Shown here piece by piece: positions 7,336-60,274 of a DNA stretch of 64,000 nucleotides. The DNA is taken from contig JBMNLZ010000002.1 in the NCBI GenBank assembly GCA_050953065.1, forward strand, positions 319,305 to 383,304, read 5' to 3'. Positions within the stretch are counted from its first letter, which is position 1. Each line of letters opens with the position of its first letter. This DNA comes from Bacilli bacterium. GTDB lineage: Bacteria > Bacillota_I > Bacilli_A > ML615J-28 > CAG-698. The translations under genes and the position numbers were made by a program. Below the pieces are notes generated by a model. It did not search any database and had not been told where the DNA came from. It saw only the letters and a program-made list of their open reading frames with translations.

Positions 7336-7423
7336 TAGTAATTAGATTTAAAGAATAGAAACCTATTATTTAGGTTTCTATTTATTATTTACAAGTAATA
7401 AGATTTAAGAAAGGATAATTGGT

Positions 7424-8317: not shown

Positions 8318-8318
8318 T

Positions 8319-9491
8319 ATGATGAATGAAGATATAAGAGTAAAAGTTTTTGATAAGAAAAAGATTTTGAAAAATTATTTAATTAATTCAGGTGCTATAT
8401 TAGCTGTATTAATAATTCTTTCATTGCTTGGAAGAGAAAATCCTTCTGATCTTAGAAACTTAATTATTTTAGCATCAATTAATATTTTAGCGGCTGTTTC
8501 ACTTAATATGATGTGCGGGTCATTGGGTGAACTAGTTTTAGGGCATGCAGGCTTTATGTTAACAGGAGCCTATGCAGCTGGTATTTTTACTAAAGCATGG
8601 CAAGTGTCAGATAAACTAATGGTTAGATTTGTAATGCAACCAGCGGGTTACTTACAAATAATCCTAGCAGTTCTTATTGCAGGGCTAGTTGCTGCATTAC
8701 TGGCTTTTATTATTTCAATACCATTTTTAAGATTAAAGGGTGACTATCTAGCTATTGTTACGTTAGGGTTTACTTTGATAATGGTAACAGTAGCGGTTAA
8801 TATGCCAATGTCTCCTGAATCAGGATGGTATACAAGTGGTGCTCAAGGTTTAATTGGAGTTCAAAATATCTTGGAAATAAATGCCTTTATGGCAGTTGCT
8901 ATAATGATTCTTTCTGTAACGATTATCTTATTGTTTATGCTTTCAAGGCACGGGCGTGCAATTCTTGCAATTAGAGAAGACTATATTGCAGCTGAAGCAT
9001 CTGGAATTAAGGTTAATAAATACAAGGTTATTACTTTTGTTATTTCAGCTTTCTTTGCTGGTGTTGCTGGTGGAGTATATGCTTTTTATAATAATGTAGC
9101 GCCAACAAAATTTTCTTTTGAAAAATCAATTGAAATTTTAGTTATGGTAGTTTTAGGTGGAATAGGATCTTATACTGGATCAATTCTTTCAGCCTTTGCT
9201 CTTACGGCTCTACCAATTTTATTATTAGATTTTTCAAGATATCAAAAGTTAGTATATGCGATAATTTTATTAGTAGTTATGCTTATTAAACCAACGGGAC
9301 TTTTCGGAACAAAAGAATTTACTTGGAAAGCCTTAAAAGAAGCTCCGAAAAAATTTTATGCTTGGTTAAAAGCATTACCTAAGAATATTTCTAATGGATT
9401 TAAAAATTTAGGTCAAAAGATTAAATATATCTTTAAAAAACCTTCTAACGAAGTAGTTGAGTCAGGAGGTAATAAAGATGAAAGAAAATAG
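8319..9491 (+). CDS. Branched-chain amino acid ABC transporter permease (LivM-like)
   Basis: Polytopic permease. Probable start is MMNEDIRV at 8319 with RBS GGACAGAAGGTG, just after the livH stop. Confidence 0.75.
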   Translation: MMNEDIRVKVFDKKKILKNYLINSGAILAVLIILSLLGRENPSDLRNLIILASINILAAVSLNMMCGSLGELVLGHAGFMLTGAYAAGIFTKAWQVSDKLMVRFVMQPAGYLQIILAVLIAGLVAALLAFIISIPFLRLKGDYLAIVTLGFTLIMVTVAVNMPMSPESGWYTSGAQGLIGVQNILEINAFMAVAIMILSVTIILLFMLSRHGRAILAIREDYIAAEASGIKVNKYKVITFVISAFFAGVAGGVYAFYNNVAPTKFSFEKSIEILVMVVLGGIGSYTGSILSAFALTALPILLLDFSRYQKLVYAIILLVVMLIKPTGLFGTKEFTWKALKEAPKKFYAWLKALPKNISNGFKNLGQKIKYIFKKPSNEVVESGGNKDERK

Positions 9492-10260
9492 AAAAATTGT
9501 TTTAGAAACAAAGGACTTAGAAATTAATTTTGGTGGACTTCAAGCAGTTAAAGAATTAAACATGAAGATTTATGAAAAAGAATTAGTTGGATTAATTGGT
9601 CCAAATGGGGCTGGTAAGACTACTGTCTTTAATTTAATCACTGGAGTTTATAAAGCAACTAGTGGCTCAATTTATCTTTGTGGGGAAAGTATTTTAAATA
9701 AACTTACTCATGAAAGAGTAAAAAAAGGAATTACTAGAACTTTTCAAAATATAAGACTTTTTAAAAATTTAACAGTTTTAGATAATGTAAAAGTTGCTTG
9801 TAATATTAATATGAAATATTCAATGTTAGCTGGAGTCTTTCGTCTTCCAAGTTACTGGAAAGAAGAAGCTATGGTTGAAAAGAAAGCATTAGATATTTTA
9901 AAGGTTTTTGGTCTTGAAGGTTATGCAAAGCAACTAGCTAGTAATTTACCATATGGTAAACAAAGAAAATTAGAAATTGCTCGTGCTTTAGCATCAGATC
10001 CAAAAATTATTTTACTAGATGAACCAGCTGCAGGAATGAATCCAACTGAGACTCAAGAGTTAATGGAAACAATTAGTATCATTAGAGATAAGTTTAATGT
10101 AACGATTCTTTTAATTGAACACGATATGAAATTAGTTATGGGGATTTGTGAGAGAATTTATGTTTTAAATTATGGTGAACTAATTGCAAGTGGTACTCCA
10201 AAAGAAGTTGCTCATAACGAAAAGGTCATTACTGCATATCTAGGAACTGGAGAAATATAA
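9478..10260 (+). CDS. Branched-chain amino acid ABC transporter ATP-binding protein (LivG-like)
   Basis: Walker A GPNGAGKTT, LSGGQ-like signature (LPYGKQRKLEIARAL), Walker B ILLDEPAAG. Confidence 0.85.
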   Translation: MKENRKIVLETKDLEINFGGLQAVKELNMKIYEKELVGLIGPNGAGKTTVFNLITGVYKATSGSIYLCGESILNKLTHERVKKGITRTFQNIRLFKNLTVLDNVKVACNINMKYSMLAGVFRLPSYWKEEAMVEKKALDILKVFGLEGYAKQLASNLPYGKQRKLEIARALASDPKIILLDEPAAGMNPTETQELMETISIIRDKFNVTILLIEHDMKLVMGICERIYVLNYGELIASGTPKEVAHNEKVITAYLGTGEI

Positions 10261-10261
10261 T

Positions 10262-10996
10262 ATGGCAAGATTTATATTAAAAGTTAAAGATATTAGTGTT
10301 AGTTATGATGCTACAATTAGAGCAATTCATAATGTTAGTGTTGATATAAAAGAAGGTAAGATTGTAGCTTTTATTGGAGCCAATGGTGCAGGAAAGACTA
10401 CAATTTTAAAAACTATTTCAGGACTACTTCGTCCAACAAGTGGTGCAATCCATTGGTTAAATGAAGATGGAACAATTCTTGATTTAATAAAAATAGAACC
10501 ACATAAGATTTTACAACTTGGCATGGCTCATGTACCTGAAGGTAGACAAGTCTTTGCTAATCTAACAGTTCAAGAAAATCTTGAAATGGGAGCATATGTT
10601 ATTAAAGATAAAAAGAAAATAGAAGAAAATATGCAGAAGATGTTTGAAAAGTTTCCAAGATTAGCAGAAAGAAAAAAACAACTTGCAGGAACTTTATCTG
10701 GTGGGGAACAACAAATGTTAGCGATAGCTCGTGCTTTAATGAGTAATCCTAAAATCTTGTTATTAGATGAACCTTCAATGGGCTTATCACCAATTTTAGT
10801 TTCAGAAGTATTTGAAATTATCCAAGAGATTAGAGATATGGGGACTACAATTTTAATTGTTGAACAAAATGCACGTATGGCTTTATCAATTGCTAATTAT
10901 GCTTATGTTTTAGAAACAGGTAGAGTTGTAATGCAAGGCGATGCTAAGGAATTACTTAAAAACGATGAAGTAAGAAAAGCATATTTAGGTGCATAA
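10262..10996 (+). CDS. Branched-chain amino acid ABC transporter ATP-binding protein (LivF-like)
   Basis: Walker A GANGAGKTT, signature LSGGEQQML, Walker B LLLDEPS. Confidence 0.85.
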   Translation: MARFILKVKDISVSYDATIRAIHNVSVDIKEGKIVAFIGANGAGKTTILKTISGLLRPTSGAIHWLNEDGTILDLIKIEPHKILQLGMAHVPEGRQVFANLTVQENLEMGAYVIKDKKKIEENMQKMFEKFPRLAERKKQLAGTLSGGEQQMLAIARALMSNPKILLLDEPSMGLSPILVSEVFEIIQEIRDMGTTILIVEQNARMALSIANYAYVLETGRVVMQGDAKELLKNDEVRKAYLGA

Positions 10997-23618: not shown

Positions 23619-23903
23619 ATGAATTGTTTAAAATGTAAATCAGAAATGAAAGAAAATGAAACTATTTGTAGATTATGTGGTGCAGTACATAAACTAAATA
23701 GAAGACAAAAATTAGTATTATTAAGTCCAATTACTGCAAAACAAGTTTTAATTGGGATTCTTTTCCCTCCACTTGGTTTTGCTTTGTGGGGCTTAGATGT
23801 TAAAGAAGACCCAGGTAAAGCTAAAAACTATTTACGTTTTAGTTTGCTTGGAGTTTTAGTTTACATAGTAGCGTTTGTTATTGTAAATATGAATGCGATT
23901 TAA
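23619..23903 (+). CDS. Small zinc-ribbon membrane protein
   Basis: CLKC…CRLCG ribbon followed by two hydrophobic helices. Confidence 0.4.
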   Translation: MNCLKCKSEMKENETICRLCGAVHKLNRRQKLVLLSPITAKQVLIGILFPPLGFALWGLDVKEDPGKAKNYLRFSLLGVLVYIVAFVIVNMNAI

Positions 23904-23927
23904 ATTATAGGCGTTTTAAAAAAACTT

Positions 23928-24057
23928 AATAAGGAATCAAAGTGAAAATCTTTAGCTGCCCCAGCAACCGTGATATGAATGAAATGAGTTAACCACTGAA
24001 AAGTAAATTTTTTGGGAAGGTTCAAAGTAAAGTGAAGTTAAGCCGGGAGACTTGCCT
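23928..24057 (+). promoter_or_regulatory. Cobalamin (B12) riboswitch
   Basis: Direct matches to the cobalamin riboswitch consensus: GGAATcaAAGTGAAAATCtttaGCTGCCCCaGCAACCGTGA, B12 box cCACTGaaa, GGGAAGG, and the 3' AGCCgGGAGACtTGCC element. It lies about 35 nt upstream of the 24092 gene. Confidence 0.8.
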
Positions 24058-24091
24058 ATATTTAAAAATATAAAATAAATAAGGAGAAGAA

Positions 24092-24943
24092 ATGAAAAAA
24101 ATGTATTTACTTTTGATTTTTTTGTTGGTGTTTGCTGGGTGCTCAAACAAAAAACAAAAAGATGTAGTTGATCAGAATGTCGATTCATATATTGATAGTT
24201 TCATTGAAACTAAAGTTATGGATTATGTTGCCTTTGAAGATGAGGCCTATGTTGTTAATGTTTATGTATTAGGAGCCATAAATAAATTAGAAGGGTTTGA
24301 TAAAACAATTTTAAATATTGATAAAGATGATTTAGTTGTTTATTTAAATGGGTTAGAAAAAACTCCACTTAATTTGTTTAAAAAAGCTCTAACAAATGAT
24401 TTCTTTGGCCTAGACCAAACAAATGTTAAAAACGATTTAAATGCTCTTACAACAGAAAGCGTTACGAATGTTTATGATATGCTAAATATCATTTATGCAT
24501 TTAATGTTTTAAAAGAAGAGAGTGCATTAAAAACTACTTTTGAAGAGTATGTTCTAAATTTAGAAAATAATCCATATAGTGATAGTGATTATGCAGCACA
24601 AGTAATTTTAGCTTTAGCTAATAAGGATTATGATTTAACGCCTCATAAGGATTTAATTTTAGATTCATTGACTGCTGAGGGAATTAACGCTTGGGGGAAT
24701 AATAATTCAGCTTCTACTGCAATGGCTGTTATGGCATTTTTAGCACTAGGAGAAAATCCAAGAGCAATAAATGATATAGATTTAATTAGTATTCTTTTTG
24801 ATTATAAACTAGATGATGCTTTTAAATGGTTAAAAGAAGATGCTGAAGCTGATCTTAACTTTTCAACACCACAAGTTTTTACGGCTTTTGTACTTTATCA
24901 AGTGTTTCAAAAAACAGAAAAGAATGTTAATCTTTTTTCATAA
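24092..24943 (+). CDS. Alpha-helical repeat lipoprotein, candidate cobalamin-binding partner
   Basis: Lipobox FAGC; helical repeats with WG/NNSASTAMAVMAF motifs reminiscent of alpha/alpha-toroid folds; first gene behind the B12 riboswitch. Confidence 0.45.
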   Translation: MKKMYLLLIFLLVFAGCSNKKQKDVVDQNVDSYIDSFIETKVMDYVAFEDEAYVVNVYVLGAINKLEGFDKTILNIDKDDLVVYLNGLEKTPLNLFKKALTNDFFGLDQTNVKNDLNALTTESVTNVYDMLNIIYAFNVLKEESALKTTFEEYVLNLENNPYSDSDYAAQVILALANKDYDLTPHKDLILDSLTAEGINAWGNNNSASTAMAVMAFLALGENPRAINDIDLISILFDYKLDDAFKWLKEDAEADLNFSTPQVFTAFVLYQVFQKTEKNVNLFS

Positions 24944-25339
24944 ATGAAAAACACAATTCTTAAAGTTGCTTTAACTCTTCTTGGTATAGCGTTAATTGTT
25001 TTTATCTATTTTATTAGTCAACCTAAAATAGATAGTGGTATAATTAATATTATTTTAGTTAATGATGAAGGTGTTGAAGTAATTAATGATGAAATAGAAT
25101 TTAGTGAATATACTGATGGAAAGAAAACAACACTTTATGCTATTTTAGAAGCAAACTATGATATTAGAGTAGATAATGGTTTTTTATATGACTTTGAAAG
25201 TGTTAAAACAGATGGCGTTGATAACTTTATCAAGATTTTAAAAAATGATTCCTTCGCAACAAAAGGAATTAAAACCATAGATTTTAAAGATCAAGATGTG
25301 ATAAAGTTTGTTTATACAAAGGTCGGTGATTTCTCTTGA
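24944..25339 (+). CDS. DUF4430-like protein (transcobalamin beta-domain-like), membrane anchored
   Basis: N-terminal TM helix; C-terminal pattern …TLYAILEAN…GFLYDFESV…DQDVIKFVYTK resembles DUF4430 (…Y.vNG…GDvI.w.Y). Start overlaps the upstream stop. Confidence 0.45.
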   Translation: MKNTILKVALTLLGIALIVFIYFISQPKIDSGIINIILVNDEGVEVINDEIEFSEYTDGKKTTLYAILEANYDIRVDNGFLYDFESVKTDGVDNFIKILKNDSFATKGIKTIDFKDQDVIKFVYTKVGDFS

Positions 25340-25851
25340 AAAACTTTAAAACAAGAGATATTACAATCTTAGCAGTTTTAACTGCTGTTTTATTTGCTCA
25401 AGAATTAGCGTTATCTTTTTTACCTAATATTCAGTTAACAGTATTATTGATAATGTTATATTCAAGAGTTTTGGGAACTAAAAAAAGTCTAATTGTTGTT
25501 TTTGTGCATGTTCTATTAGATAATTTGATTTTTGGATTTAATATATTATACTTTATTAGTATGCTAATTGGTTGGAGTGTAATTCCTCTTTCAATTAACT
25601 CTGTTTTTAAAAGAATAGAAAATGTTTATTTATTAGGACTACTTGGAATATTATATTCTATTATTTATGTTCTACCTTTTATGGCAGTAAATGTTTTGAT
25701 TTTAAAGGTTGATTTTTATGCTTATTTAATAGCGGATATTCCTTTTACAGCCGTTTTAGCTATTAGTAGTTTTTTAAGTATTATTTGGGCATATAAACCT
25801 TTAGAAGAATCAATTCTAAAATTTAATCAAATTTATGAGTTAAATAATTAA
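25336..25851 (+). CDS. ECF-transporter S-component-like membrane protein (candidate CbrT-type B12 S component)
   Basis: 171 aa with 5-6 TM helices and an N-terminus like S components (TRDITILAVLTAVLFA). TTG start overlaps the upstream stop. No EcfA/EcfT genes in the window. Confidence 0.45.
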   Translation: MKNFKTRDITILAVLTAVLFAQELALSFLPNIQLTVLLIMLYSRVLGTKKSLIVVFVHVLLDNLIFGFNILYFISMLIGWSVIPLSINSVFKRIENVYLLGLLGILYSIIYVLPFMAVNVLILKVDFYAYLIADIPFTAVLAISSFLSIIWAYKPLEESILKFNQIYELNN

Positions 25852-25871: not shown

Positions 25872-25908
25872 AAAAAATGTATCATACCTATTAGTATGAT
25901 ACATTTTT
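25872..25908. terminator. Bidirectional terminator
   Basis: atgtatcatac-ctatta-gtatgatacat hairpin flanked by A- and T-runs, between convergent genes. Confidence 0.7.
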
Positions 25909-26051: not shown

Positions 26052-26330
26052 TTAATACAAAATAAATAGTTTAGTAAAGAAATACTTTTTAGCTTTTTTA
26101 TGTAATAATTCAACATTTACATAAGATTTGAAAGAACTAGCAATTTCTTCTGGTTCTCCAAATTCTTCCCTTATTTCTTTGATTGATGAATTAGGATTTT
26201 CAAAAAGAAAATCCTGAATATTTTCTTTAAAAGAAGATATAAAAGCTAATTTAATATTTGATGAACAAAGCATTTTAGATTTAATGTTTCTTAGGTATTT
26301 TTTGAATTCTTTACTTTTTAGAATTTCCAT
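26052..26330 (-). CDS. DUF1700-like protein, N-terminal part only (possibly frameshifted)
   Basis: PadR-associated DUF1700-like N-terminus (…EEFGEPEEIASSF…). A TM helix (TIYFVLIVLLVLAISLIAVMLY) is encoded just downstream in a different frame. Confidence 0.35.
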   Translation of the reverse strand: MEILKSKEFKKYLRNIKSKMLCSSNIKLAFISSFKENIQDFLFENPNSSIKEIREEFGEPEEIASSFKSYVNVELLHKKAKKYFFTKLFILY

Positions 26331-26703
26331 TGTTATTTTCCTCCCAATTTAATAAACTTGAAACTCCTTTTGAAACTTCTTGATATTTTTCTAAAGCAAA
26401 CTCTAAATATTCTTTTCCACTATCTTCAATATGATAGTAATTTCTAAATCTTTTTTTACCAACCAATACTTTGTTTGAAGAAATGAGTTTTCTTTCTTCT
26501 AGTTTATATAAAGGGCCATATAAAGAACCTTCTTTAACATCAAATACACCATTAGTTCTTATATATAAGTCTTTTTTAATCTCATAACCATAAGTATCTT
26601 TTTCGGTTAAAAGATGTAAGATTAGGATTTCTAATAATCCAAATTTTAAATTTTCATCAAGATCAAATTTCCATTTTTCATCAGGATCTATTTTCCACCA
26701 CAT
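26311..26703 (-). CDS. PadR family transcriptional regulator
   Basis: Winged-helix PadR motifs (LEILILHLL…YGYEI…GSLYGPLYKLEERKLI). Confidence 0.8.
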   Translation of the reverse strand: MWWKIDPDEKWKFDLDENLKFGLLEILILHLLTEKDTYGYEIKKDLYIRTNGVFDVKEGSLYGPLYKLEERKLISSNKVLVGKKRFRNYYHIEDSGKEYLEFALEKYQEVSKGVSSLLNWEENNNGNSKK

Positions 26704-27735: not shown

Positions 27736-28977
27736 ATGAAGAATATGAAAATAAAGAAGAGAGTAATTACAATCATAGTGTCGATTTACTTTTTAGTTTG
27801 TGGCATTTTTGTGGTTAATAACGGCACATTGTCGACCTATGCATGGACTTCCGACAATGATGAAATATATGGATTTCAACCTACAATAGAAAATTTTACA
27901 TACGGATTGGATGAGCAGTTTCTTGTATCATTTATGATCGATTCTGAAACTTATGAAATATCGGCAAGTACGGTGACATCCCTAAATTACACAACAAATG
28001 GGTTTCTAGTTATTCAGTTACCATTTTATTCACAAGGGACTATAAAAGCACAAATAAAATATAACGGGATGACTATTGATCCAATATTTACGGTTATTGC
28101 AAAACTTGCAAATGGTCATCAGTTGTGTGCAAGTATTTATGGGATAATAGAGGATGATACTCTATATATAAATGGGAACTCTTATGAGGGGGCTAGGGAT
28201 ATTTATTATGCGACTGCGCTTGAAGAAGGGACAATGACGTTAGATGAATATGAGGCAGTTTTCAGTGGTGGTGGTTTGGGAAACACGAATATGAAACCGC
28301 TAATCGTACCGCTTGCGTCAGGTGACACTTGGGTTTCAGGGACATTGCAATGGATAGACGATTGGGAGAATACTCATCCATTACAGCACACAAAGGTTAC
28401 TGTTTATGATAAAGAGGGAGATTTGCTTATTGGTTGGTGGGACAGGGATTTATGCACGGTTTACACAAATGCTAACGGTAATTTTAGCGTAGGATTCAGT
28501 AATAGAAGTGGAGGTAGCAATATTTTTATTAAAGTATGGCCAGAAGGTGAAAACTCAGTCGTTAAGACAGGTGCGAACAACGAATATGTTTGGTGTAGTG
28601 AAACGGTATGGAGCGTAGCTACGGGATCAACGACTACAATTAATCGTACATTCAATATGCGCGACACGGGCAATTTTATTGATGGCGTTGAAGGAGATGG
28701 CGATTTAGGGCGCGCCTTTCAGGTTTCACAAGCCACAATTATTGCGGCTCGGTACATTACAGAAATGAGGGGCAGTAGCATTTCAGATGTAACTGTTAGA
28801 TATCCTCACAATGAAAGCAGTACTGGATGTTTTTACAGTGAAAATACGGTTTATATTATAGGAAATAGGGATATAACATTAGATACTACTTTTATAAATG
28901 GCGTTCGTTTTCGTTCCTACGCTTCGCGGGATGTTATAATGCATGATAAAATATTTTATTACAATATTTACCTTTAA
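27736..28977 (+). CDS. Hypothetical secreted or membrane-anchored protein with a CarboxypepD_reg-like beta-sandwich
   Basis: N-terminal signal/anchor; the segment KVTVYDKEGDLLIGWW…YTNANGNFSVGF resembles a carboxypeptidase-regulatory-like domain; GC-rich. Confidence 0.45.
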   Translation: MKNMKIKKRVITIIVSIYFLVCGIFVVNNGTLSTYAWTSDNDEIYGFQPTIENFTYGLDEQFLVSFMIDSETYEISASTVTSLNYTTNGFLVIQLPFYSQGTIKAQIKYNGMTIDPIFTVIAKLANGHQLCASIYGIIEDDTLYINGNSYEGARDIYYATALEEGTMTLDEYEAVFSGGGLGNTNMKPLIVPLASGDTWVSGTLQWIDDWENTHPLQHTKVTVYDKEGDLLIGWWDRDLCTVYTNANGNFSVGFSNRSGGSNIFIKVWPEGENSVVKTGANNEYVWCSETVWSVATGSTTTINRTFNMRDTGNFIDGVEGDGDLGRAFQVSQATIIAARYITEMRGSSISDVTVRYPHNESSTGCFYSENTVYIIGNRDITLDTTFINGVRFRSYASRDVIMHDKIFYYNIYL

Positions 28978-29371
28978 GTTTAATTATTTTTTGGTATGAT
29001 TCTTCTATTCTTTCAAGCGGAATCTTTCCTTCTTCAACTAATCTTACAAAAGTATTAAAAACATTGAATTGATCTTCTAATAAAGCTTGCCCACAAAAAA
29101 CAAGCATATCACATCCTGCCATCACAGAATTATAAATAACCTCTTCTAACAAATAATTCTTACTAATTGCTTGCATTGTTAAGGAATCTGTAACAATTAA
29201 TCCTTTAAAGTTTAGTTCATTAATTAAAAAATCTCTCACAATATTTTTAGATAAACTTGCAGGGTAAGTATCAAAACTAGAATAGATGATATGAGACATC
29301 ATAACCCCATCAATTCCTTGTTCTATTGCTTCTTTAAAAGGAATGATTATTCCATTAAATGTAGAAATCAT
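28934..29371 (-). pseudogene. nagZ: 5'-truncated beta-N-acetylhexosaminidase (GH3, NagZ-like) remnant
   Basis: Contains the GH3 nucleophile motif GFKGLIVTDSLTM and the C-terminal end of the domain, but lacks the roughly 180-200 N-terminal residues including KHFPGHG. Confidence 0.65.
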
Positions 29372-31153: not shown

Positions 31154-32365
31154 ATGATAAAAAGAGAGATGTATTTAAGTAAAATAAGACCATTTTATAA
31201 TGATGATATGATTAAAGTAATTACTGGGATAAGAAGATCTGGAAAATCATCTTTGTTAATGCAAATTATGGATGAACTTATTTTAAGTGGTGTTAAACAA
31301 GAACAAATTATTTATATTGATTTGGATTCTAAACCATACAAAGGATATAAAACTAAAGAAGCATTAGAAAAAGAAATTGATCGATTATACTTAGATACTA
31401 AAGCTAAAACATATATTTTTATTGATGAGATTCAAAACATTAAAAATTTTGAAGAAATTATTAATTCATATAGAACTTCTTATAATGCATCCATATTCAT
31501 AACTGGAAGTAATTCATATTTATTAAGTGGTGAATTAGTTACTAAGTTAACTGGAAGGTATATTGAATTTTCAATACTTCCATTTTCATATAAAGAAGCA
31601 ATGACCTATATTGCTGAAACAGGCGCCAGTATTGTATTTGATATTCAAAATTATATAAATTATGGCGGGCTACCTAAGCGTTTTTCATATAGTAATCCTG
31701 ATGAAATCTTTAAATATATTGAAAGTGTTAGCACGCAAATTATTGATAAAGACATATTAAAAAGAGTAAAGATAAGAAATAGAAATTTGTTATCAAGACT
31801 CATTGATTATGTATGTAATAATCCAGCAACAACTTTTAGTTCAAAATCAATTGTTGAATATTTAAAAATTGAAAAAATTAACACTAAGATAGCTACAATA
31901 AATAAGTATTTAGATTTTATTGTTAATTCCAAAATAATTAATCGCTGCAAAAGGTATGATATTAGAGGAAAAAGAACACTAAATTTTGAAGAAAAATACT
32001 ACTTATCAGACTTAGCTTTTAAAACTATAAAAAGTAATACTAATAAGATATCATATTCACATGCTATTGAAAATATCGTATATAATGAACTGATTTCTAG
32101 AGGATTTAAGGTATATGTAGGAAAATTATACAAAAAAGAAATTGATTTTGTTGTTATGAAAGGTGCGAGTATTGCATACATTCAAGTTTCCTACTTAATG
32201 AGTGATGAAAAAACTTTAGAACGAGAATTTGGAAATTTGGAATTAATAAAAGACAACTTCCCTAAATATGTTATTTCAATGGACCCACTTGATATGTCTA
32301 GAAATGGTATTAAACATTTGAAACTAGTAGATGATTTTTTATTAGGGGATACTTATTTAAAGTAA
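31154..32365 (+). CDS. AAA+ ATPase with DUF4143 domain (AAA_14 family)
   Basis: Walker A GIRRSGKSS, Walker B FIDEIQ, C-terminal DUF4143-like region. Confidence 0.7.
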   Translation: MIKREMYLSKIRPFYNDDMIKVITGIRRSGKSSLLMQIMDELILSGVKQEQIIYIDLDSKPYKGYKTKEALEKEIDRLYLDTKAKTYIFIDEIQNIKNFEEIINSYRTSYNASIFITGSNSYLLSGELVTKLTGRYIEFSILPFSYKEAMTYIAETGASIVFDIQNYINYGGLPKRFSYSNPDEIFKYIESVSTQIIDKDILKRVKIRNRNLLSRLIDYVCNNPATTFSSKSIVEYLKIEKINTKIATINKYLDFIVNSKIINRCKRYDIRGKRTLNFEEKYYLSDLAFKTIKSNTNKISYSHAIENIVYNELISRGFKVYVGKLYKKEIDFVVMKGASIAYIQVSYLMSDEKTLEREFGNLELIKDNFPKYVISMDPLDMSRNGIKHLKLVDDFLLGDTYLK

Positions 32366-32639: not shown

Positions 32640-35600
32640 ATGAAAAGGTTATTGCTTTTCTTAGGTTTTTTTCTTCTTTTATCAGGTTGTGCTAAACCTG
32701 AAAAAGTGGTTTTAGAAAGTCTTCAAGATGTATATGAATATAATCTTGACTTTTTTAGTTTGGAAAACATTCAAATTAAAAGTATTATTAAGGGAGAAGA
32801 AGGATTAATTAACTTAGATGAAAGTATGTTAAGTAATGAAGATTTAGAAAAACTAAATCAAGTAGGTCTTCATGAAATAACAATCAATTATCAAGGAAAA
32901 AATATTACTATTAAATTAGATTTATATAAAGATATTTATCAAGTTAAATATATTTATAATAATGGTTTAGAAGATTTAGTTATCAATCAAGTAAAGGATA
33001 GTTTGCTTGAAGAACCAACCACTCCCCACAAAGATAATTATGATTTTTTGGGATGGTATTATAAAGCGCTTTGTGATGGAGTGGCTTGGAATTTTGAAAC
33101 GGATGTATTAAAAAATGATCTTGTTTTAGAAGCAAGATGGCAGTTAAGTAAAAAATTAGTTAGGTTTTTAAATGATGAAGAAGTCTTATATGAAACAGAA
33201 GTAAGTTATGGAGATAAAGTACCAGACTATCTTTTTGAAGTAAATGCTAATGAGATTTTTGTTGGTTTTTTAGATAGTAATGAAAAACGAGTTGAATATG
33301 TTTATGAGAATCTTGATTTATATGCTCAAGTTTATGAAATAAAAAATTATGATTTTAAATATTCTATTAAAAACAATTATGTTTATATTACTGGAATCGT
33401 TAATAATACAACTAAAAACTTAGTAATTCCAAGTCATATTTATGGACTTGAAGTAGTAGCGATAAATGACTATGCTTTTATGGATAATAATAAATTAGAA
33501 AGTGTAGTGTTACCTAATACAATTAGAAAAATAGGAAGATATGCTTTTGGCTTTTGTGTTAACTTAAATAGTATTAATATTCCAAGCAATGCTATAGTTT
33601 ATGAGAAAGCATTTTATTTTACTAAGATGGTTGAAGGAATTGACTTTTTTATAGTTAATAATGTCTTACTTGAATATTATGGAGAAGATGAAATTGTTAT
33701 AGTTCCAGATGGTGTAGAAAAAATTGCTAGTAAAGCATTTTATTATAAAAATGTTATTGAGGTAAAGTTACCTAATTCAGTAACTGAAATTGAAACTGAA
33801 GCTTTTGCTTATTCTAATTTGATTAATGTAGAGATTCCTGCAAGTGTTAAGACTTTTGGAGCTGATATTTTTAAAGGTACTCCATGGCTTAAAAATCAAG
33901 ATTCATCAATTATTTTTAATAATTATTTTTTAACCTATATTGGTAGTGCTTTAGAATATAAGATTCCAGAAGGAGTAGAAAAGATTGCTACTAATGCATT
34001 TTTTGAAACCTCTCTTAGTAGAATTACAGTTCCTGCAAGTGTAGTTTATATCAATGATGATGCTTTTGATTCTAAAATTGATGAGATAGTATTTTTAGGA
34101 GTTTTACCTGATTTTTATAGTTCTTTTGTAAGTGAGGATGTAATTCTAAGAGTTAATTTAACTCAAGATGTTCCAAAAAAATATAATAGATATTATGTTA
34201 TTACAAAAGATACAACTTATGATGCATCATATGAATATAGAGTTATTAATGATGAGGTTATCATAACTAGATATTTAGGAGATGAATTAAAGATAGTAAT
34301 TCCTGATGAAATAAAGGGAAAAAAAGTTGTAGCACTTGGTGCTTATGCATTTTTTGAAAGTTTAATTGAAGAGGTGACTTTACCAAAAGATTTAAGGATT
34401 ATTTATCCATATGCTTTTTATAGTTCACTTAGTTTAAACAAAGTTAATTTTAATGAAAATTTAGAACACTTATCTTATTATGTTTTTGGTAGGTGTAAGA
34501 ATTTAAAAACTCTTAATTTACCTGAGTCAATTAAAAGTCTAGATACTTATGCTTTAGGTGGATTTGGGTTAGAAAATTTAACACTTGATAATGTTTATTA
34601 TAAAACTGTTGATAATGTACTTTATACAAGTGATTTAAGAACTTTAATTTTTTATCCAAACGGAATTAAAGATTCTGAGTTTGAAATTTTAGAAAGTGTT
34701 TATAGACTTTCATATGGAGCATTTATCATGGCTCAAAATATTAAAGTTTTAACCTTTAGTACTCCTTATTTACCACTTTATAATGAAGTAGCGTTTTATC
34801 CTGAGATAGTTATAAAAGCTAAAGATGATTTATTTGATAAATATAATATTTTATATGGTCTTATGACTAATGAGGTTTATAAAGAAAAAGATTTTGCTGG
34901 AGATTTTTGTATTATAAATAATGCTTTAGTAAAATATATTGGTAATGATGAAGAAGTAATTATTCCAGAAAATGTTACTACAATTGAGGCCAATGCTTTT
35001 CAAGGATATGGTAATCCTAAAAGAGTTATTATTAATCATTCATTAATGATTAAAAATTATGCTCTAACTTATATGAGAGATTTAGAAAGTATTACTTTAA
35101 ATGCTTTTTGTACAGTTGATTCTTATGCAATACCAATTACTGCAGTTTTATTAGTAGAAGAGGCTGATATAGTTTTATATAAAGCAATGATTAATGTAAT
35201 TGAGGAGTATTTGATTATTTCTAAAACTTCTTTAATTAAAGAAAATGATGATTTTAAATATGTTATATATAATAATAAAGCAATGATTTTAAAGTATTTA
35301 GGAAATGCTTATGATTTAATAATTCCTGAAAAAATAGATGATTATAATGTTACATATATTAATAACAATGCTTTTGTTGGATCATCAGTTAGAATTGTTG
35401 ATTTACCTAAAACAATTGAAAAACTTGGTGCTTGGGTTTTTGCTTCATCTAATCTAGAGGTGATTATCTTTAGAAGTTTAGCTGTTCCTAATATAAAAGA
35501 TTCAACTTTTTCTTATGATGAAAAATTAGAGATTTATGTTTTAAAAGAAAGATTAGATAATTATAAAGAAAATATTAATTTTTCTAAACATTTATTATTT

Positions 35601-36731
35601 GCATATGATGAATATGTAAGTTCAGAAGGAATTTTAAAATATATAATTTATGATAATCAAGTGATTATTAAAGGACATACTAATAGATCATATGAAATTG
35701 AAATTCCAAGTGAAATCTCAGGTTATCCAGTTACTACTATTGCAAGTGATGCTTTTAAGAATAGTTTAGAATTAAAGAAATTAGTTTTACCTAAAACAGT
35801 TAAAAAGGTAGAAGCTAATGCATTTTCAGGTTGTATAAATTTAGAAAGTATTACTCTTTATAGTGAAGAATTAGCTTCAATTGGTTTTATTAATTTAAAT
35901 CAATTAAGTAGTAATTTTAGCTTTAAAATTTTAGCAAGCGTCCATCAAGACTTTATTTTAGAATATCCTGATTTAGAAGATTATGTTTCAAGATTTGGAA
36001 TTTTAATAACTTTTCATAGTATGGGTGGCAGTAGAGTAAAAAGCATTACAAAACTAGATAGTTATACTTTACCTAAAAATCCATATAAATTGGGTTATGA
36101 GTTTTTAGGTTGGACTAATTTTTCAGGTGAAGCGATTGATTTTGATGCAATTGAAACTGATACAGTAGTTTATGCTAAGTGGCAAGAAAACACAACAGTT
36201 CATACTGTTAGTTTTGTTACTAATACTGAGGCTTTAATTGAACCAATTGAAAAGATTTATAATGATACAATTGATATGATTATTATGCCTTATAGAGAAA
36301 CATATCATTTAGAAGGTTGGTATTTAGAAGAAGATTTTCAAACTAAAATTACTTTTCCATTTGCTGTAACTAGTAATTGTACATTATATGCTAAATGGAT
36401 TAGTGTTGTTAGAGATGGCTCTACTTTTGAAAATGCCTACTTACTTTATAAAGGAATAAATACAATTAGTAGTAATCTAATTAAAACATATTATGCATTC
36501 TATCCTTTAGACCCACCATATGATCAAGATAAGGTGTATATCTTTAGGAGTTTAGAGGTAGTTAATGTTATAATATATCTATATGATATTTATGGAAATG
36601 AAATGAAGTTTAATTATGGAGGAGATGAACCTTTCTATTTAGACCAATTGCTTAAGCAACAATATATTTATTATATAGCATTTGAAAAACTAGATTCGAG
36701 TGTATCAGTATATCAAGTTGAGGTGGATTAA
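32640..36731 (+). CDS. Giant (1363 aa) BspA-type LRR surface lipoprotein with Flg_new repeats
   Basis: Lipobox LSGC; dozens of roughly 23-aa LRR units (…AF..C.NL..I.IP..V..I…); Flg_new motifs near both ends (YDFLGWYY…EARW; YEFLGWTN…YAKW). Confidence 0.75.
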   Translation: MKRLLLFLGFFLLLSGCAKPEKVVLESLQDVYEYNLDFFSLENIQIKSIIKGEEGLINLDESMLSNEDLEKLNQVGLHEITINYQGKNITIKLDLYKDIYQVKYIYNNGLEDLVINQVKDSLLEEPTTPHKDNYDFLGWYYKALCDGVAWNFETDVLKNDLVLEARWQLSKKLVRFLNDEEVLYETEVSYGDKVPDYLFEVNANEIFVGFLDSNEKRVEYVYENLDLYAQVYEIKNYDFKYSIKNNYVYITGIVNNTTKNLVIPSHIYGLEVVAINDYAFMDNNKLESVVLPNTIRKIGRYAFGFCVNLNSINIPSNAIVYEKAFYFTKMVEGIDFFIVNNVLLEYYGEDEIVIVPDGVEKIASKAFYYKNVIEVKLPNSVTEIETEAFAYSNLINVEIPASVKTFGADIFKGTPWLKNQDSSIIFNNYFLTYIGSALEYKIPEGVEKIATNAFFETSLSRITVPASVVYINDDAFDSKIDEIVFLGVLPDFYSSFVSEDVILRVNLTQDVPKKYNRYYVITKDTTYDASYEYRVINDEVIITRYLGDELKIVIPDEIKGKKVVALGAYAFFESLIEEVTLPKDLRIIYPYAFYSSLSLNKVNFNENLEHLSYYVFGRCKNLKTLNLPESIKSLDTYALGGFGLENLTLDNVYYKTVDNVLYTSDLRTLIFYPNGIKDSEFEILESVYRLSYGAFIMAQNIKVLTFSTPYLPLYNEVAFYPEIVIKAKDDLFDKYNILYGLMTNEVYKEKDFAGDFCIINNALVKYIGNDEEVIIPENVTTIEANAFQGYGNPKRVIINHSLMIKNYALTYMRDLESITLNAFCTVDSYAIPITAVLLVEEADIVLYKAMINVIEEYLIISKTSLIKENDDFKYVIYNNKAMILKYLGNAYDLIIPEKIDDYNVTYINNNAFVGSSVRIVDLPKTIEKLGAWVFASSNLEVIIFRSLAVPNIKDSTFSYDEKLEIYVLKERLDNYKENINFSKHLLFAYDEYVSSEGILKYIIYDNQVIIKGHTNRSYEIEIPSEISGYPVTTIASDAFKNSLELKKLVLPKTVKKVEANAFSGCINLESITLYSEELASIGFINLNQLSSNFSFKILASVHQDFILEYPDLEDYVSRFGILITFHSMGGSRVKSITKLDSYTLPKNPYKLGYEFLGWTNFSGEAIDFDAIETDTVVYAKWQENTTVHTVSFVTNTEALIEPIEKIYNDTIDMIIMPYRETYHLEGWYLEEDFQTKITFPFAVTSNCTLYAKWISVVRDGSTFENAYLLYKGINTISSNLIKTYYAFYPLDPPYDQDKVYIFRSLEVVNVIIYLYDIYGNEMKFNYGGDEPFYLDQLLKQQYIYYIAFEKLDSSVSVYQVEVD

Positions 36732-38022: not shown

Positions 38023-40719
38023 ATGAAAAAAATATTATATTTGGGAATGTTTTTATTGTTTAGTTTCATCATTACAGGTTGTAGTGAGATGGTAGCTAAT
38101 GCTAATGTTACTATTACAGTTGAAGATTATGCTATTTCTTTAAATGTTGGAGATATAGAAATAATTAAACCGGTTGTAACAGGAATAGAAGGAGCTAATC
38201 TTAATTACACTTCAAGCGATGAAACTGTTTTTATTGTTGAAAATGGTGCCATTTCAGCATTAAAGGTAGGAGTAGCAACACTGAATATTTCAGTTGTAGG
38301 AACTAATGCTACTGCTATAGTAAATGTTACAGTTGTTGATCCAAGTGAGGGTAGTGAAGACATTTCAGAGATTTTAGTTATAGCAAGTAAAACTAAATTA
38401 CATGTTAATGAAAGCCTTAAATTGAATGTTATGGTTGATTCAAATATTTATGCAGGTGAAGTTCAATGGTTTTCAAATAATACTTCAATTGCAAGAGTTG
38501 ATGCATCTGGTCTGGTTACTACTTTAAAACCAGGTACAGTAACAATTACTGCACTAGTTGGTAGTGCTTGGAATTCAGTTAATATTACAGTTCAAGCTGC
38601 ACCAAATGTAATTGTTCCTGTTGTTTCAACAATTATGTTATCAGGTTCAAGTTTTGTTAATGTAAATGGAGCGGTAATGTTATCTGTTTCAACTAATACT
38701 GGTGAAGTACCTGAATTAGTTTGGTCAACAAGTGATGAAACAATTGCAACAGTTAATGATGGTGTTATTACAGGTGTTGGTGCAGGGATTGCAATAATCA
38801 CAGCTTCTTTAAATGATAATGAAGCAGTTAAAGGAACTTTCACTATTTTAGTAAAAGAAGATTTAGAAACAAATACTGATAGTAAAATAACAACTATTAC
38901 TTTGAGTGCTCCTAATGAAGTACTACAAGGTAATAAAATTAAGTTAGCAGTTAGTTGGGTGCCAAGTACTGAGGCTGCATCATTTACTTATGCTTCAAGT
39001 GATACTTCAATTGCAACAGTTGATGCTTTTGGTTGGGTAACAGGAGTTAAAGGTGGAGTTGTTCAAATTAGTGCAACATTAGTTGCAGACTCTACAAAGA
39101 GTGCAGTTCATACAGTTAATGTAATTCCTCTTCCTTCAAGTTTAGCTATCACTGGTCCAACAAGTCTATCTTATGGACAAAAAGTTACGCTTGAAGTTGC
39201 AGCAATGCCATCTGGAGCAAGTAATGCTGTAACTTGGACTTCAAGTAATACTGCTGTTGCAACAGTTGATAGTAGTGGTAGAGTAACTGGTATTGCTGCA
39301 GGAAGTGCAACAATCACAGCAACTTCAATTGTTTCAAATAGTATTTTAGCATCTCATAATATTACAGTTAATGATTCAAATTCAATTACTTTAAATCCGA
39401 CAAGTCTTTCATTAATTGCAGGAGCAAATCAAACAATTACAGCAACTGTTAATGCTAGTAATTTAACAGATAAATCAGTTACATGGAGTAGTAGTAATAC
39501 TGGTGTTGCTACAGTTGATAATAATGGTAAAATTACAGCAGTAGCAGCAGGTAGTTCAACTATTACAGCAACATCTAAAGCTGATGCAACATTAAAAGCA
39601 ACATGTGCTGTAACAGTAACAGCTGTTCCAAGTGGTGGTGGTACTGGTGGATTAACAATCACACAAAGTCCAACTGGAACAATCGCAGTAGGAGCAAGTG
39701 GTTATCAATTATATATTACAGATTCAAGTGGTGCAAGTGTCTCTCGTCTTGAATGTACTTTCTCATCAAGTAACTCTAGTGTAGCAACAGTTTCTGCATA
39801 TGGAACAATCTCAGCTTTAGCAAATGGAACTGCAACAATCAATGTAACTCATGCATCAAAAGGAACTGGTTCAATTACTTTAACAATTGGATCTGGTGGT
39901 GGCTCAACTCCTCCAGTTACGCCTCCAGCAACAGGCTTAGTAATCACACAAAGCCCATCAGGTACAATTAATGTTGGAGCAAGTGGCTATCAATTATATG
40001 TAAAAGATACAAGTGGAACAAGCATTTCAAGAACTGAATGTACTTTCTCATCAAGTAATAGTGGAGTTGCTACAGTTTCTGCATATGGAACAATTTCAGC
40101 TTTATCAGGTGGCTCTGCTAAGATTACAGTAACTCATCCTTCAAAAGGATCAGGTACAATTACTCTAACTATTACAGGTTCAAGTGGTGCTGTAGAAAAT
40201 AAACGTAATACAATTATAGAAATAGCATTAAATGAAGTAGGTTATACTGAAGGATATAATAATAATACTAAGTACGGTGCTTGGTATGGAATGAACTATC
40301 AACCATGGTGTGCAATGTTTGTTTCTTGGTGTGCATATAAAGCAGGCATTCCAACTTCAATTGTTTATAAATATGCTTCAGTTTATTGGGGACTTCAATG
40401 GTATAAAGATAAAGGATCTGCTTATTATAAATCATATTATCAAACTCAAACAGGCGCTTATACTCCAAGATGTGGAGATATCGTATTCTTCCAAAGCAAT
40501 GGAGCATCTCATACTGGTTTAGTTATTAGATGTGAAGGAAGTAAAATGTATACAGTAGAAGGAAATACATCTGATAGAGTATTGAAACGTTGGTATTATT
40601 ATAAGAGTTATAATAAGATTACAGGTTATGGTGTACCAGGATATCCAGCAAGTTCAACTCCAATTAAAAACTTTAGTGTTAGTGGAGCAACTTTTGGTGG
40701 CGGTGTATCAACAACTTAA
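38023..40719 (+). CDS. Surface lipoprotein with about 8 Big_2 domains, two near-identical roughly 95-aa repeats and a C-terminal CHAP (amidase/peptidase) domain
   Basis: Lipobox ITGC; repeated SS(D/N)…ATV(D/N)…G.V.A...G.A.ITA Big_2 signatures; CHAP motifs (…QPWCAMFVSWCAYKAG…GDIVFF…SHTGLV…). Confidence 0.75.
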   Translation: MKKILYLGMFLLFSFIITGCSEMVANANVTITVEDYAISLNVGDIEIIKPVVTGIEGANLNYTSSDETVFIVENGAISALKVGVATLNISVVGTNATAIVNVTVVDPSEGSEDISEILVIASKTKLHVNESLKLNVMVDSNIYAGEVQWFSNNTSIARVDASGLVTTLKPGTVTITALVGSAWNSVNITVQAAPNVIVPVVSTIMLSGSSFVNVNGAVMLSVSTNTGEVPELVWSTSDETIATVNDGVITGVGAGIAIITASLNDNEAVKGTFTILVKEDLETNTDSKITTITLSAPNEVLQGNKIKLAVSWVPSTEAASFTYASSDTSIATVDAFGWVTGVKGGVVQISATLVADSTKSAVHTVNVIPLPSSLAITGPTSLSYGQKVTLEVAAMPSGASNAVTWTSSNTAVATVDSSGRVTGIAAGSATITATSIVSNSILASHNITVNDSNSITLNPTSLSLIAGANQTITATVNASNLTDKSVTWSSSNTGVATVDNNGKITAVAAGSSTITATSKADATLKATCAVTVTAVPSGGGTGGLTITQSPTGTIAVGASGYQLYITDSSGASVSRLECTFSSSNSSVATVSAYGTISALANGTATINVTHASKGTGSITLTIGSGGGSTPPVTPPATGLVITQSPSGTINVGASGYQLYVKDTSGTSISRTECTFSSSNSGVATVSAYGTISALSGGSAKITVTHPSKGSGTITLTITGSSGAVENKRNTIIEIALNEVGYTEGYNNNTKYGAWYGMNYQPWCAMFVSWCAYKAGIPTSIVYKYASVYWGLQWYKDKGSAYYKSYYQTQTGAYTPRCGDIVFFQSNGASHTGLVIRCEGSKMYTVEGNTSDRVLKRWYYYKSYNKITGYGVPGYPASSTPIKNFSVSGATFGGGVSTT

Positions 40720-40799: not shown

Positions 40800-41035
40800 T
40801 AGATACGTTGATAAAGGACATGGTTAATAAATTAATTTTTTTACAAGAGAAAGTAGGCTGGTGGAAACTACTTAAAAATATTTATTAATTACTACCTTTG
40901 GAGTAGATTGAAAAAACAATCCGTAGTCTTTGCGTTAAAAGAGTTAAAAGTTGCATCTATTTATTATAGATGAATTAAGGTGGTACCGCGAAAAATTCGT
41001 CCTTATGTTTTTACATAGGGATTTTATATTTATAA
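40800..41035 (+). promoter_or_regulatory. T-box riboswitch leader of thrS
   Basis: Conserved T-box sequence AATTAAGGTGGTACCGCG, followed by a terminator hairpin ccttatg-ttttta-catagg(g) and a U-run just before the thrS RBS. The specifier codon was not pinpointed. Confidence 0.75.
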
Positions 41036-41046
41036 GGAGAAAAATT

Positions 41047-47402: not shown

Positions 47403-47475
47403 AATAAATTTAATAGAAAGAAAATTATTGATGTAGTTTATTATATAATTATTAGGTATGAAAAAAGGGGGAAAT

Positions 47476-60226: not shown

Positions 60227-60274
60227 ATTATAAATTTGGTAAAATATAGATATGAAAGAGGTGAAAAAAATAAA

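Follow-up and report, generated by a model that had tools for sequence, protein, structure and literature searches.

Organization of the locus

The window, the whole 64-kb stretch of DNA that was analyzed, contains a compact operon of three genes on the forward strand, with a riboswitch before it and a terminator hairpin after it. Its features are as follows.

23892–24073, forward strand: cobalamin riboswitch aptamer RF00174, matched by cmscan over the full model
24081–24086, forward strand: Shine-Dalgarno sequence AAGGAG of gene 1, read from the sequence, 8 nt past the aptamer
24092–24943, forward strand: gene 1, 283-aa surface lipoprotein with predicted (alpha/alpha)6-toroid fold; lipobox LVFAGC, Cys17
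24944–25339, forward strand: gene 2, 131-aa N-terminally membrane-anchored DUF4430 (transcobalamin-beta-like SLBB) protein, CbrS-like, assigned by Pfam and family searches
25336–25851, forward strand: gene 3, 171-aa predicted ECF-transporter S-component, CbrT-like, with a TTG start, assigned by profile searches and hhalign
25873–25908, no strand assigned: bidirectional intrinsic-terminator-like hairpin with a 15–16 bp stem and T-runs on both strands, closing the operon

Genes 1 and 2 abut with no intergenic bases and gene 3 overlaps gene 2 by 4 nt. The three reading frames are exactly those described in an earlier note on this DNA, which had also stated that they are not BtuFCD. Domains of the BtuF, BtuC and BtuD types are indeed absent from the operon proteins, none of the three matching Peripla_BP_2, FecCD or ABC_tran in Pfam.

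Related loci were searched for in genomes with a 20-sequence alignment, and 52 loci were fetched. At the species level, the riboswitch and the gene triad form a conserved unit in 49 genomes, almost all of them from Acholeplasmataceae and their relatives. Wherever the contig is complete, the toroid lipoprotein gene is followed by the gene for the DUF4430 protein and then by that for the S-component, and in most of these loci the genes overlap or are separated by gaps of 0–40 nt.

Cobalamin riboswitch

The leader matches RF00174 over model positions 1–189 with 87.1 bits (gathering score 31.5; E = 4e-20). The segment 23928–24057, previously proposed as a cobalamin riboswitch, proves to be the core of this longer element, so that the covariance search bears out the proposal. 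In the sister-species loci L001–L003, the homologous operon is likewise preceded by the element. In the species-level set it precedes the gene triad in 43 of 49 loci, and in the other six the contig stops just upstream.

In most relatives the spacer between the aptamer and gene 1 holds a hairpin followed by a T-run. The window differs in this respect, and no terminator-like site was found between 24073 and 24092. With only 8 nt between the aptamer and the Shine-Dalgarno sequence, and no terminator in this interval, the riboswitch in the lineage of the window probably acts at translation initiation, presumably by sequestering this sequence. Minimum free energy folding of the leader gave z = 0.25, and no helix sequestering the Shine-Dalgarno sequence could be assigned.

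Toroid lipoprotein

Modeled with AF2 from an alignment of 66 diverse sequences obtained by an exhaustive HMMER search, the product of gene 1 adopts an (alpha/alpha)6 toroid that superposes on transcobalamin and intrinsic factor; a model from only seven close homologues had a pLDDT of 54 and was unusable. Structure prediction thus confirms the alpha-helical repeat lipoprotein that had been read from the sequence. The proposed kinship with the alpha domain of intrinsic factor and transcobalamin holds at the level of the fold but not at that of the sequence. Neither the window protein nor any of the 66 family members matches Cobalamin_bind (PF01122), and single-sequence and profile searches of PDB chains with the protein and its core family returned noise only. 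Remote homologues of gene 1 are SLH-anchored toroid+DUF4430 proteins, among which P0108 is the sole relative with a PF01122 match, a weak one below threshold (E = 5.6e-4). No Pfam model covers this divergent toroid family, whose members are annotated as “hypothetical protein.”

The lipoprotein of the window consists of the toroid only, without a DUF4430 domain. Its counterparts in 38 of 52 fetched loci have such a domain at the N terminus, giving a beta-to-alpha domain order, and this natural fusion supports a functional link between the toroid and DUF4430. Alpha-only lipoproteins are found on deep branches of a crude family tree. A tblastn search with one fused relative, P0057, gave no match to plasmids.

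Fold comparison alone does not single out the B12 binders, since terpene cyclases and epimerases match the toroid at least as well as intrinsic factor and transcobalamin do. Rather than bind B12, the gene 1 product could be a co-regulated member of the terpene-cyclase/prenyltransferase/6-hairpin superfamily, acting as an enzyme or an adhesin; it might remodel corrinoids or dock a B12 carrier of a host or partner, leaving the DUF4430 protein and the S-component to handle B12 alone. The protein has a faint similarity to Prenyltrans (E = 0.048, 13.5 bits against a threshold of 26.5), and no family member passes the threshold for the class II terpene cyclase/prenyltransferase models PF13243 and PF00432. 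The DxDD motif of class II terpene cyclases is absent from gene 1, and its conserved DxDYA maps away from the DxDD position in a rough transfer via P0097. The toroid is an extracytoplasmic lipoprotein, fused in most relatives to a domain of the transcobalamin-beta type, and toroid plus SLBB is exactly the pair that clamps B12 in transcobalamin. Wherever upstream sequence is available, it stands under the control of a B12 riboswitch. We regard the enzyme or adhesin reading as unlikely in both of its forms, and the gene 1 product is predicted to be an extracytoplasmic corrinoid-binding element.

S-component

Taken as a single sequence, the product of gene 3 gives weak matches to PF07155 ECF-ribofla_trS (E = 0.058) and to 6fnp_A (E = 0.3); the Pfam scores of both the DUF4430 protein and the S-component of the window are below the curated thresholds. 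With the family profile, the sole PDB match is CbrT (6fnp_A, E = 9.7e-5), aligned over nearly its full length, and hhalign pairs gene 3 with the CbrT orthologue of L. intestinalis at 96.5% probability (E = 7e-10, identity about 23%). PF12822 ECF_trnsprt is matched by 13 of 24 gene 3 relatives, and close relatives bear the JGI label [quoted passage not shown] These matches uphold the earlier assignment of gene 3 as an ECF S-component resembling CbrT. The protein is thus a predicted CbrT-type S-component, and transport of cobalamin or cobinamide is predicted from the riboswitch and this homology. The CbrT transporter itself was reportedly predicted by Rodionov et al. in 2009.

CbrT of Lactobacillus delbrueckii (PDB 6FNP) was shown experimentally to be an S-component for cobalamin and cobinamide, and its locus is organized as nrdJ-cbrS-cbrT-pduO (Santos et al., 2018, PMC5997447). 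In an annotated L. intestinalis locus, “cbrS” corresponds to a DUF4430 protein, and in Lactobacillus and Enterococcus a DUF4430 gene adjoins CbrT, NrdJ and PduO. In Lactobacillales, a DUF4430 protein is paired with CbrT in the absence of any toroid. Like these loci, the window encodes a small extracytoplasmic DUF4430 protein immediately before the S-component, the S-components are homologous over their full length, and in both cases EcfAA'T lies outside the operon, in the manner of group II. The window differs in having a riboswitch, which is missing from the two Lactobacillales loci checked, and an additional toroid lipoprotein gene, while NrdJ and PduO are not adjacent; its DUF4430 protein is anchored by a transmembrane segment, whereas that of L. 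intestinalis is a lipoprotein. ECF-CbrT is functional in E. coli without CbrS (PMC5997447), and the surface proteins are therefore at most accessory to transport.

Pfam scans of 37 further ORFs of the window revealed neither EcfA, EcfA' or EcfT nor a B12-dependent enzyme. A scan for Walker-A and ABC-signature motifs in all window ORFs of at least 100 aa flagged only a LivG/LivF pair and DnaI, so that the ABC ATPases of the 64-kb window are of the LivG/LivF type only and an EcfAA'T module is absent from it; nor was one noticed within 4 kb on either side of the related loci. This absence would suit a solitary transporter of the BtuM kind, working without an ECF module and supplied by the surface proteins acting in capture; S-component-like proteins lacking ECF modules have a precedent in BtuM (PMC6072759). 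The absence of the module from 64 kb says little, however, because group II S-components are normally encoded apart from the shared EcfAA'T module (PMC5997447), and the closest relative of gene 3, CbrT, needs an ECF module. A cysteine ligand motif of the BtuM type was not noticed in gene 3. A solitary transporter thus appears quite improbable.

Membrane-anchored DUF4430 protein

DUF4430 is the type of C-terminal domain found in proteins of the transcobalamin family (PMC4350170). The product of gene 2 begins with the hydrophobic segment ILKVALTLLGIALIVFIYFI and matches DUF4430 (PF14478) over model positions 3–72 of 72, with E = 0.0014; its 19.4 bits fall short of the gathering score, 23.8. The assignment of its C terminus to DUF4430 is solid at the family level, where 9 of 24 relatives match the domain, the best at 8e-14. 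Jackhmmer ties gene 2 to the N-terminal DUF4430 domains of the fused lipoproteins. A PDB profile search with the gene 2 family returned noise only, with no match to transcobalamin or intrinsic factor.

According to the earlier note, genes 1 and 2 would encode the two halves of a split B12 binder. Loci whose lipoprotein is a DUF4430-toroid fusion nevertheless retain a separate gene for a membrane-anchored DUF4430 protein, and in a crude neighbor-joining tree the window DUF4430 clusters with these anchored copies rather than with the lipoprotein-borne domains. On both grounds gene 2 appears to be an orthologue of the membrane-anchored partner found in relatives and not to have arisen by fission; it would be the conserved partner of the S-component and not a detached half of the lipoprotein.

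The strict form of the transcobalamin model, in which the alpha-only lipoprotein and the DUF4430 protein form a heterodimer around one B12 and act as obligatory donor to the S-component, has to be weighed at this point. Most relatives join a DUF4430 domain to this toroid, but the lipoprotein of the window does not, and within its operon such a domain could come from gene 2 only. The two genes also abut directly, and the same model was proposed for Lsa1839 and Lsa1840 of L. sakei (Verplaetse et al., bioRxiv 10.1101/864751). Against it stand the grouping of the window domain in the crude tree, the anchored copies kept beside fused lipoproteins and the DUF4430-CbrT pairs of Lactobacillales, which have no toroid. 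The last two together suggest that the anchored DUF4430 protein serves the S-component rather than the toroid. We take an obligatory heterodimer seriously as a possibility but consider it doubtful.

Relation to described systems

The arrangement had been thought uncharacterized, but it has close precedents (PMC1796856; PMC5997447; bioRxiv 10.1101/864751). The locus is a well-supported further example of a type of system that was already predicted and is biochemically untried, and the idea is not new. Bacterial proteins that combine a toroid with SLBB, in either domain order, were predicted to scavenge B12, and the same study described operons in which CbiO/CbiQ accompany a second SLBB paralog (Burroughs et al., 2007, PMC1796856). 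In transcobalamin, B12 is sandwiched between the N-terminal toroid and the C-terminal domain (PMC1796856). The window shares with the systems of 2007 the same domain pair, a second SLBB paralog in the operon, an association with ECF-type (CbiO/CbiQ) transport and a predicted role in scavenging B12 in low-GC Gram-positives (PMC1796856), and toroid+SLBB proteins of this very kind appear as remote homologues of gene 1. It is unlike them in that its toroid lacks an SLBB domain, that an S-component takes the place of the CbiO/CbiQ genes and that the link to a B12 riboswitch is documented here across 43 genomes.

The operon lsa1836-1840 of L. sakei encodes a separate beta-like protein, Lsa1839, and an alpha-like protein, Lsa1840, beside EcfS, EcfAA' and EcfT (Verplaetse et al., bioRxiv 10.1101/864751). 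By its published description it resembles the window in its “split” layout, with separate exported alpha-like and beta-like proteins near an S-component; it differs in having its own EcfAA' and EcfT, in that a riboswitch is not reported and in its assignment to heme uptake.

Should the same hold here, the module would import heme or another tetrapyrrole instead of cobalamin. The L. sakei operon was reported to be an effector of heme uptake in vitro, on the evidence of a deletion and a complemented strain, and heme was placed by docking between the alpha-like protein and the beta-like one (bioRxiv 10.1101/864751). Among comparable operons this one alone has been studied genetically, and the effect concerned heme, not B12. 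In our set, retention of the B12 riboswitch before the operon across 43 of the 49 related genomes, as well as in the window, argues for corrinoids and against the specificity claimed in L. sakei. The sole structural relative of the S-component is the B12/cobinamide transporter CbrT, and the DUF4430-CbrT pairs are located with NrdJ and PduO. Heme as the substrate is therefore very improbable, and we retain a corrinoid as the probable substrate.

The eukaryotic B12 binders transcobalamin, intrinsic factor and haptocorrin (2BB5/2BB6, 2PMV, 4KKJ) are single soluble chains with an alpha-to-beta order. The corresponding parts in the window are separate membrane-tethered chains, with a beta-to-alpha order in the fused relatives. 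Delivery by endocytic receptors in eukaryotes contrasts with the delivery to an ECF S-component proposed here. With BtuFCD and the Bacteroides BtuB/BtuG/BtuH systems, the operon would share the general scheme of riboswitch-regulated, high-affinity B12 acquisition through extracytoplasmic binders that feed a membrane transporter; the folds are unrelated, and the operon has no TonB-dependent transporter. Bacteroides BtuH was considered as a DUF4430 protein and dropped, since transcobalamin and DUF domains go unmentioned in the paper on BtuH.

Proposed pathway of corrinoid uptake

We consider it probable, though by no means assured, that the operon serves B12-repressed scavenging and uptake of corrinoids in this Acholeplasmatales-like bacterium. 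When cobalamin is sufficient, the RF00174 riboswitch would shut the operon off; when B12 is scarce, the three envelope proteins would be made. The anchored DUF4430 protein, which corresponds to the CbrS partner of CbrT in Lactobacillales, and the lipid-anchored toroid are of the two domain types between which transcobalamin and intrinsic factor hold B12; the two proteins could trap corrinoid at the surface and deliver it to the S-component. Binding of B12 by either surface protein, and contact between the alpha and beta parts in trans, are inferred, and the hand-off would be to the CbrT-type S-component, which may bind the corrinoid within the membrane. The S-component is expected to dock onto a shared EcfAA'T module encoded elsewhere, with ATP driving import.

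ECF transporters are the textbook “binding-protein-independent” importers, and much less is known of how Gram-positive and wall-less bacteria take up B12 than of BtuBFCD or of BtuG/BtuH in Bacteroides. More speculatively, and with rather low confidence, we suggest that a CbrT-type S-component is served by dedicated extracytoplasmic binders in at least 49 species, that the pair in the window closes on B12 in trans and that the two-chain state may be ancestral. Bacteria would then have, in this pair, a two-chain equivalent of transcobalamin and intrinsic factor. The alpha-only lipoproteins on deep branches of the crude tree suggest that the two-chain state could precede the single-chain toroid+SLBB binders, which would have arisen by fusion. 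In line with Burroughs et al. (2007), the toroid+SLBB lineage may be the ultimate source of the animal binders.

We found no publication in which B12 binding by a bacterial toroid or a DUF4430 protein had been tested biochemically. The compact three-gene operon offers a case for such a test, with natural fused and unfused versions of the toroid available for comparison. If binding and hand-off were shown, ECF transporters would be known to work with capture proteins outside the cytoplasm, and the proposed bacterial origin of the transcobalamin/intrinsic factor architecture would gain an experimental footing. For annotation, the toroid family could be given a name in place of its present label.

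Organization of the operon and its cobalamin riboswitch

The window, with a G+C content of 28.5%, contains a three-gene operon preceded by a cobalamin riboswitch. The aptamer (RF00174) is complete and was found by cmscan with a score of 87.1 bits, against a gathering threshold of 31.5. Re-reading of the ORFs and the riboswitch agrees with the coordinates and description of the three-gene unit, B12 riboswitch included, proposed in the earlier note.

Features of the operon and its downstream neighbors
23892-24073, plus strand: cobalamin aptamer
24081-24086: Shine-Dalgarno AAGGAG, 8 bases past the aptamer end
24092-24943, plus strand: gene 1, 283-aa ORF with an ATG start at 24092
24944-25339, plus strand: gene 2, 131-aa ORF, zero gap to gene 1
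25336-25851, plus strand: gene 3, 171-aa ORF with a TTG start, 4-nt overlap with gene 2
25873-25908: closing hairpin, 15-16 bp stem with T-runs, end of the unit
26052-26330, minus strand: DUF6120 protein
26311-26703, minus strand: PadR regulator

In most relatives, a terminator hairpin consisting of a GC-rich stem and a T-run separates the aptamer from the Shine-Dalgarno sequence (e.g., loci L005, L007, L019, and L047). In the window (24074-24091), in the sister locus L004, and in L009 and L010 the spacer comprises only about 8-20 nt and carries no terminator; control of the window operon is therefore probably translational. No helix sequestering the Shine-Dalgarno sequence could be defined in the window leader. 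The expression platform thus varies inside one orthologous family, suggesting that transcriptional control has given way to translational control.

A gene for a 94-aa zinc-ribbon membrane protein (23619-23903) lies directly upstream, in a position kept in the sister species. Gene and riboswitch match share 12 nt at the 5′ edge of the match, which means that the riboswitch promoter has to sit inside this gene or right at its end.

Proteins encoded by the operon

The gene 1 product carries a lipobox (LVFAGC, Cys17). A word-indexed search returned only seven close homologs, which gave an unusable AlphaFold2 model (pLDDT 54). When 1.8 billion cluster representatives were searched exhaustively with HMMER, 100 relatives emerged, and 66 of these gave a nearly all-helical model with pLDDT 95.2 and pTM 0.90. 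This predicted structure establishes a toroid fold. In Foldseek, the transcobalamin:CD320 complex ranked eighth and intrinsic factor-cubilin gave a TM-score of 0.56; the likeness to the alpha domain of transcobalamin and intrinsic factor is one of fold, specific kinship not being established. No member of the family matches the Pfam toroid models, and no PDB chain matches gene 1 by sequence. The weakest significant profile relatives are SLH-anchored surface proteins combining a Prenyltrans/SQHop_cyclase_C toroid with DUF4430 in either order, one of them with a sub-threshold Cobalamin_bind match, and these tie the gene 1 family by sequence to a wider bacterial group of toroid plus DUF4430 proteins.

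Family alignments show three strictly conserved motifs: D164-x-D166-Y-A, G197-I-x-x-W-G-x-x-N-S-A-S-T-A, and D254-L-x-F-S-T-P-Q-x-F. The first superficially resembles the DxDD of class-II cyclases; a rough transfer places it elsewhere.

The gene 2 product has an N-terminal hydrophobic anchor, and its C-terminal part covers the whole DUF4430 model at 19.4 bits, under the 23.8 threshold; 9 of 24 orthologs match the model, with E-values down to 8e-14. DUF4430 makes up the C-terminal domain in transcobalamin-family proteins (PMC4350170) and corresponds to what Burroughs et al. (PMC1796856) described as the “transcobalamin-like SLBB” beta-grasp.

On sequence grounds, the gene 3 product is an ECF S-component. 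PF12822 is matched by 13 of 24 orthologs, and the single PDB match of the family profile, near full length, is the 182-aa membrane chain of ECF-CbrT (6FNP; E = 9.7e-5). Alignment by hhalign with the Lactobacillus intestinalis ortholog of the cobalamin S-component CbrT gave 96.5% probability. The components had thus been named correctly beforehand: a riboswitch, an alpha-helical repeat lipoprotein, a membrane-anchored protein ending in DUF4430, and a CbrT-like S-component.

Conservation and domain fusion

One scan of GTDB species genomes revealed 49 related loci, nearly all in Acholeplasmataceae, Mariniplasma or “Tenericutes” MAGs; further hosts are Peloplasma aerotolerans, Inordinaticella fortuita, and one Erysipelotrichales MAG. 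Every locus whose contig is complete at this point shows the order toroid lipoprotein, small DUF4430 protein, S-component, and in most loci neighboring genes are separated or overlap by a few to 40 nt. In 43 of the 49, RF00174 immediately precedes the genes; in the other six the gene match starts no more than about 450 nt from the contig end or the ORF reaches the contig start. In the 74%-identical sister species, the riboswitch is present on all three fetched contigs.

A lysine riboswitch (RF00168) occurs about 0.4-1.7 kb past the S-component gene in 12 related loci (L006, L015-L017, L023, L026, L028, L030, L031, L038, L041, and L046), where the window has the PadR and DUF6120 genes.

Of 52 fetched loci, 38 encode a lipoprotein of about 400 aa, with one, sometimes two, DUF4430 domains between the lipobox and the toroid. 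The order, beta then alpha, is the reverse of that in transcobalamin, and the natural fusion indicates that the two domain types are functionally linked. Loci with this fusion also retain a separate gene for a membrane-anchored DUF4430 protein beside the S-component. In crude, midpoint-rooted neighbor-joining trees, lipoprotein-borne beta domains form one clade and gene 2 of the window groups with the anchored copies; the deep branches of the toroid tree are alpha-only lipoproteins. On this basis, a conserved partner of the S-component is the best description of gene 2. The proposal of a “split” intrinsic-factor-type capture system holds insofar as toroid and DUF4430 reside on separate chains, and is probably misleading where it suggests that gene 2 is a detached half of the lipoprotein.

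Relationship to known systems and proposed function

The arrangement had been thought uncharacterized; its components and their association are already published. Burroughs, Balaji, Iyer and Aravind (2007; PMC1796856) described bacterial SLBB-toroid proteins in both domain orders; they also reported operons in which a second SLBB paralog occurs together with CbiO/CbiQ genes, noted that the hosts lack B12 biosynthesis, and predicted B12 scavenging. Santos et al. (2018; PMC5997447) demonstrated cobalamin and cobinamide transport by ECF-CbrT and pointed out an nrdJ-cbrS-cbrT-pduO cluster. ECF-CbrT worked in E. coli without CbrS (PMC5997447), which argues that the surface proteins are accessory. 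In L. intestinalis (NZ_CP072985; L053:4555-5995), the gene in the cbrS position, directly followed by a CbrT gene whose product shares 61% identity with 6fnp_A, is annotated as DUF4430 and encodes a lipoprotein (LTFTLAGC); an Enterococcus faecalis plasmid (NZ_CP092908) has the same gene set, also with DUF4430 in that position. Unlike the window operon with its RF00174 leader, both loci lack a cobalamin riboswitch. The operon is thus a well-conserved, hitherto unannotated new family in Acholeplasmatales, belonging to a type that was predicted in 2007 and is known from Lactobacillales: a real and coherent finding, not a new kind of system.

Heme would be an unlikely alternative substrate. Lactobacillus sakei lsa1836-1840, encoding EcfS, EcfAA′, EcfT and separate exported “beta-” and “alpha-transcobalamin-like” proteins, was credited with heme uptake on the strength of a deletion strain and its complementation (Verplaetse et al., 2019, bioRxiv 10.1101/864751). 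Because the riboswitch accompanies the module so uniformly, a corrinoid is strongly favored over heme; no B12-binding test of these bacterial proteins was found in the published literature.

With a corrinoid as substrate, cobalamin would turn the operon off through the riboswitch. Upon induction, both surface proteins, the anchored DUF4430 one and the toroid lipoprotein, would pick up corrinoid on the outer side of the membrane and hand it to the S-component, which would bind it and import it via the shared EcfAA′T module on which it presumably depends. Direct observations in this scheme are the riboswitch, the folds and families, the gene order, and the fusion; ligand binding, the geometry of the alpha-beta interaction, hand-off, and ECF dependence are inferred. 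In alpha-only lineages like that of the window, gene 2 might also clamp down on the toroid in trans. EcfAA′T was not found in the 64-kb window, whose only ABC ATPases are those of a LivJHMGF system (6145-10996); for a group-II S-component this is expected, and so does not count against the model. No B12-dependent enzyme occurs among the 37 other window ORFs scanned against Pfam. The operon offers a clean experimental entry point to the putative class of ECF transporters with dedicated extracytoplasmic binding proteins.

Other features of the window

A T-box leader (RF00230, 40799-41007; 94.6 bits, barely over the gathering threshold of 93) lies directly upstream of the threonyl-tRNA synthetase gene, whose ORF (40951-42960) probably has its true start past the leader. 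Large surface proteins are unusually dense. Pfam scans of 38023-40719, 47458-49050, 54077-56659, and 60236-62260 detected BspA-type LRR_5, Listeria-Bacteroides repeat (Flg_new) or Big_2/CHAP domains; a fifth, 32640-36731, was judged by its 1358-aa counterpart on the sister-species contig L001, which has LRR_5 and Flg_new. Two paralogous genes (31154-32365 and 52683-53969) encode AAA_14 plus DUF4143 ATPases. By eye, a 145-aa ORF (28934-29371, minus strand) overlapping the end of ORF 27736-28977 looks like an interior piece of a GH3/NagZ-type beta-N-acetylglucosaminidase (GIDGVMMSH...TDSLTM), possibly the remnant of a gene.
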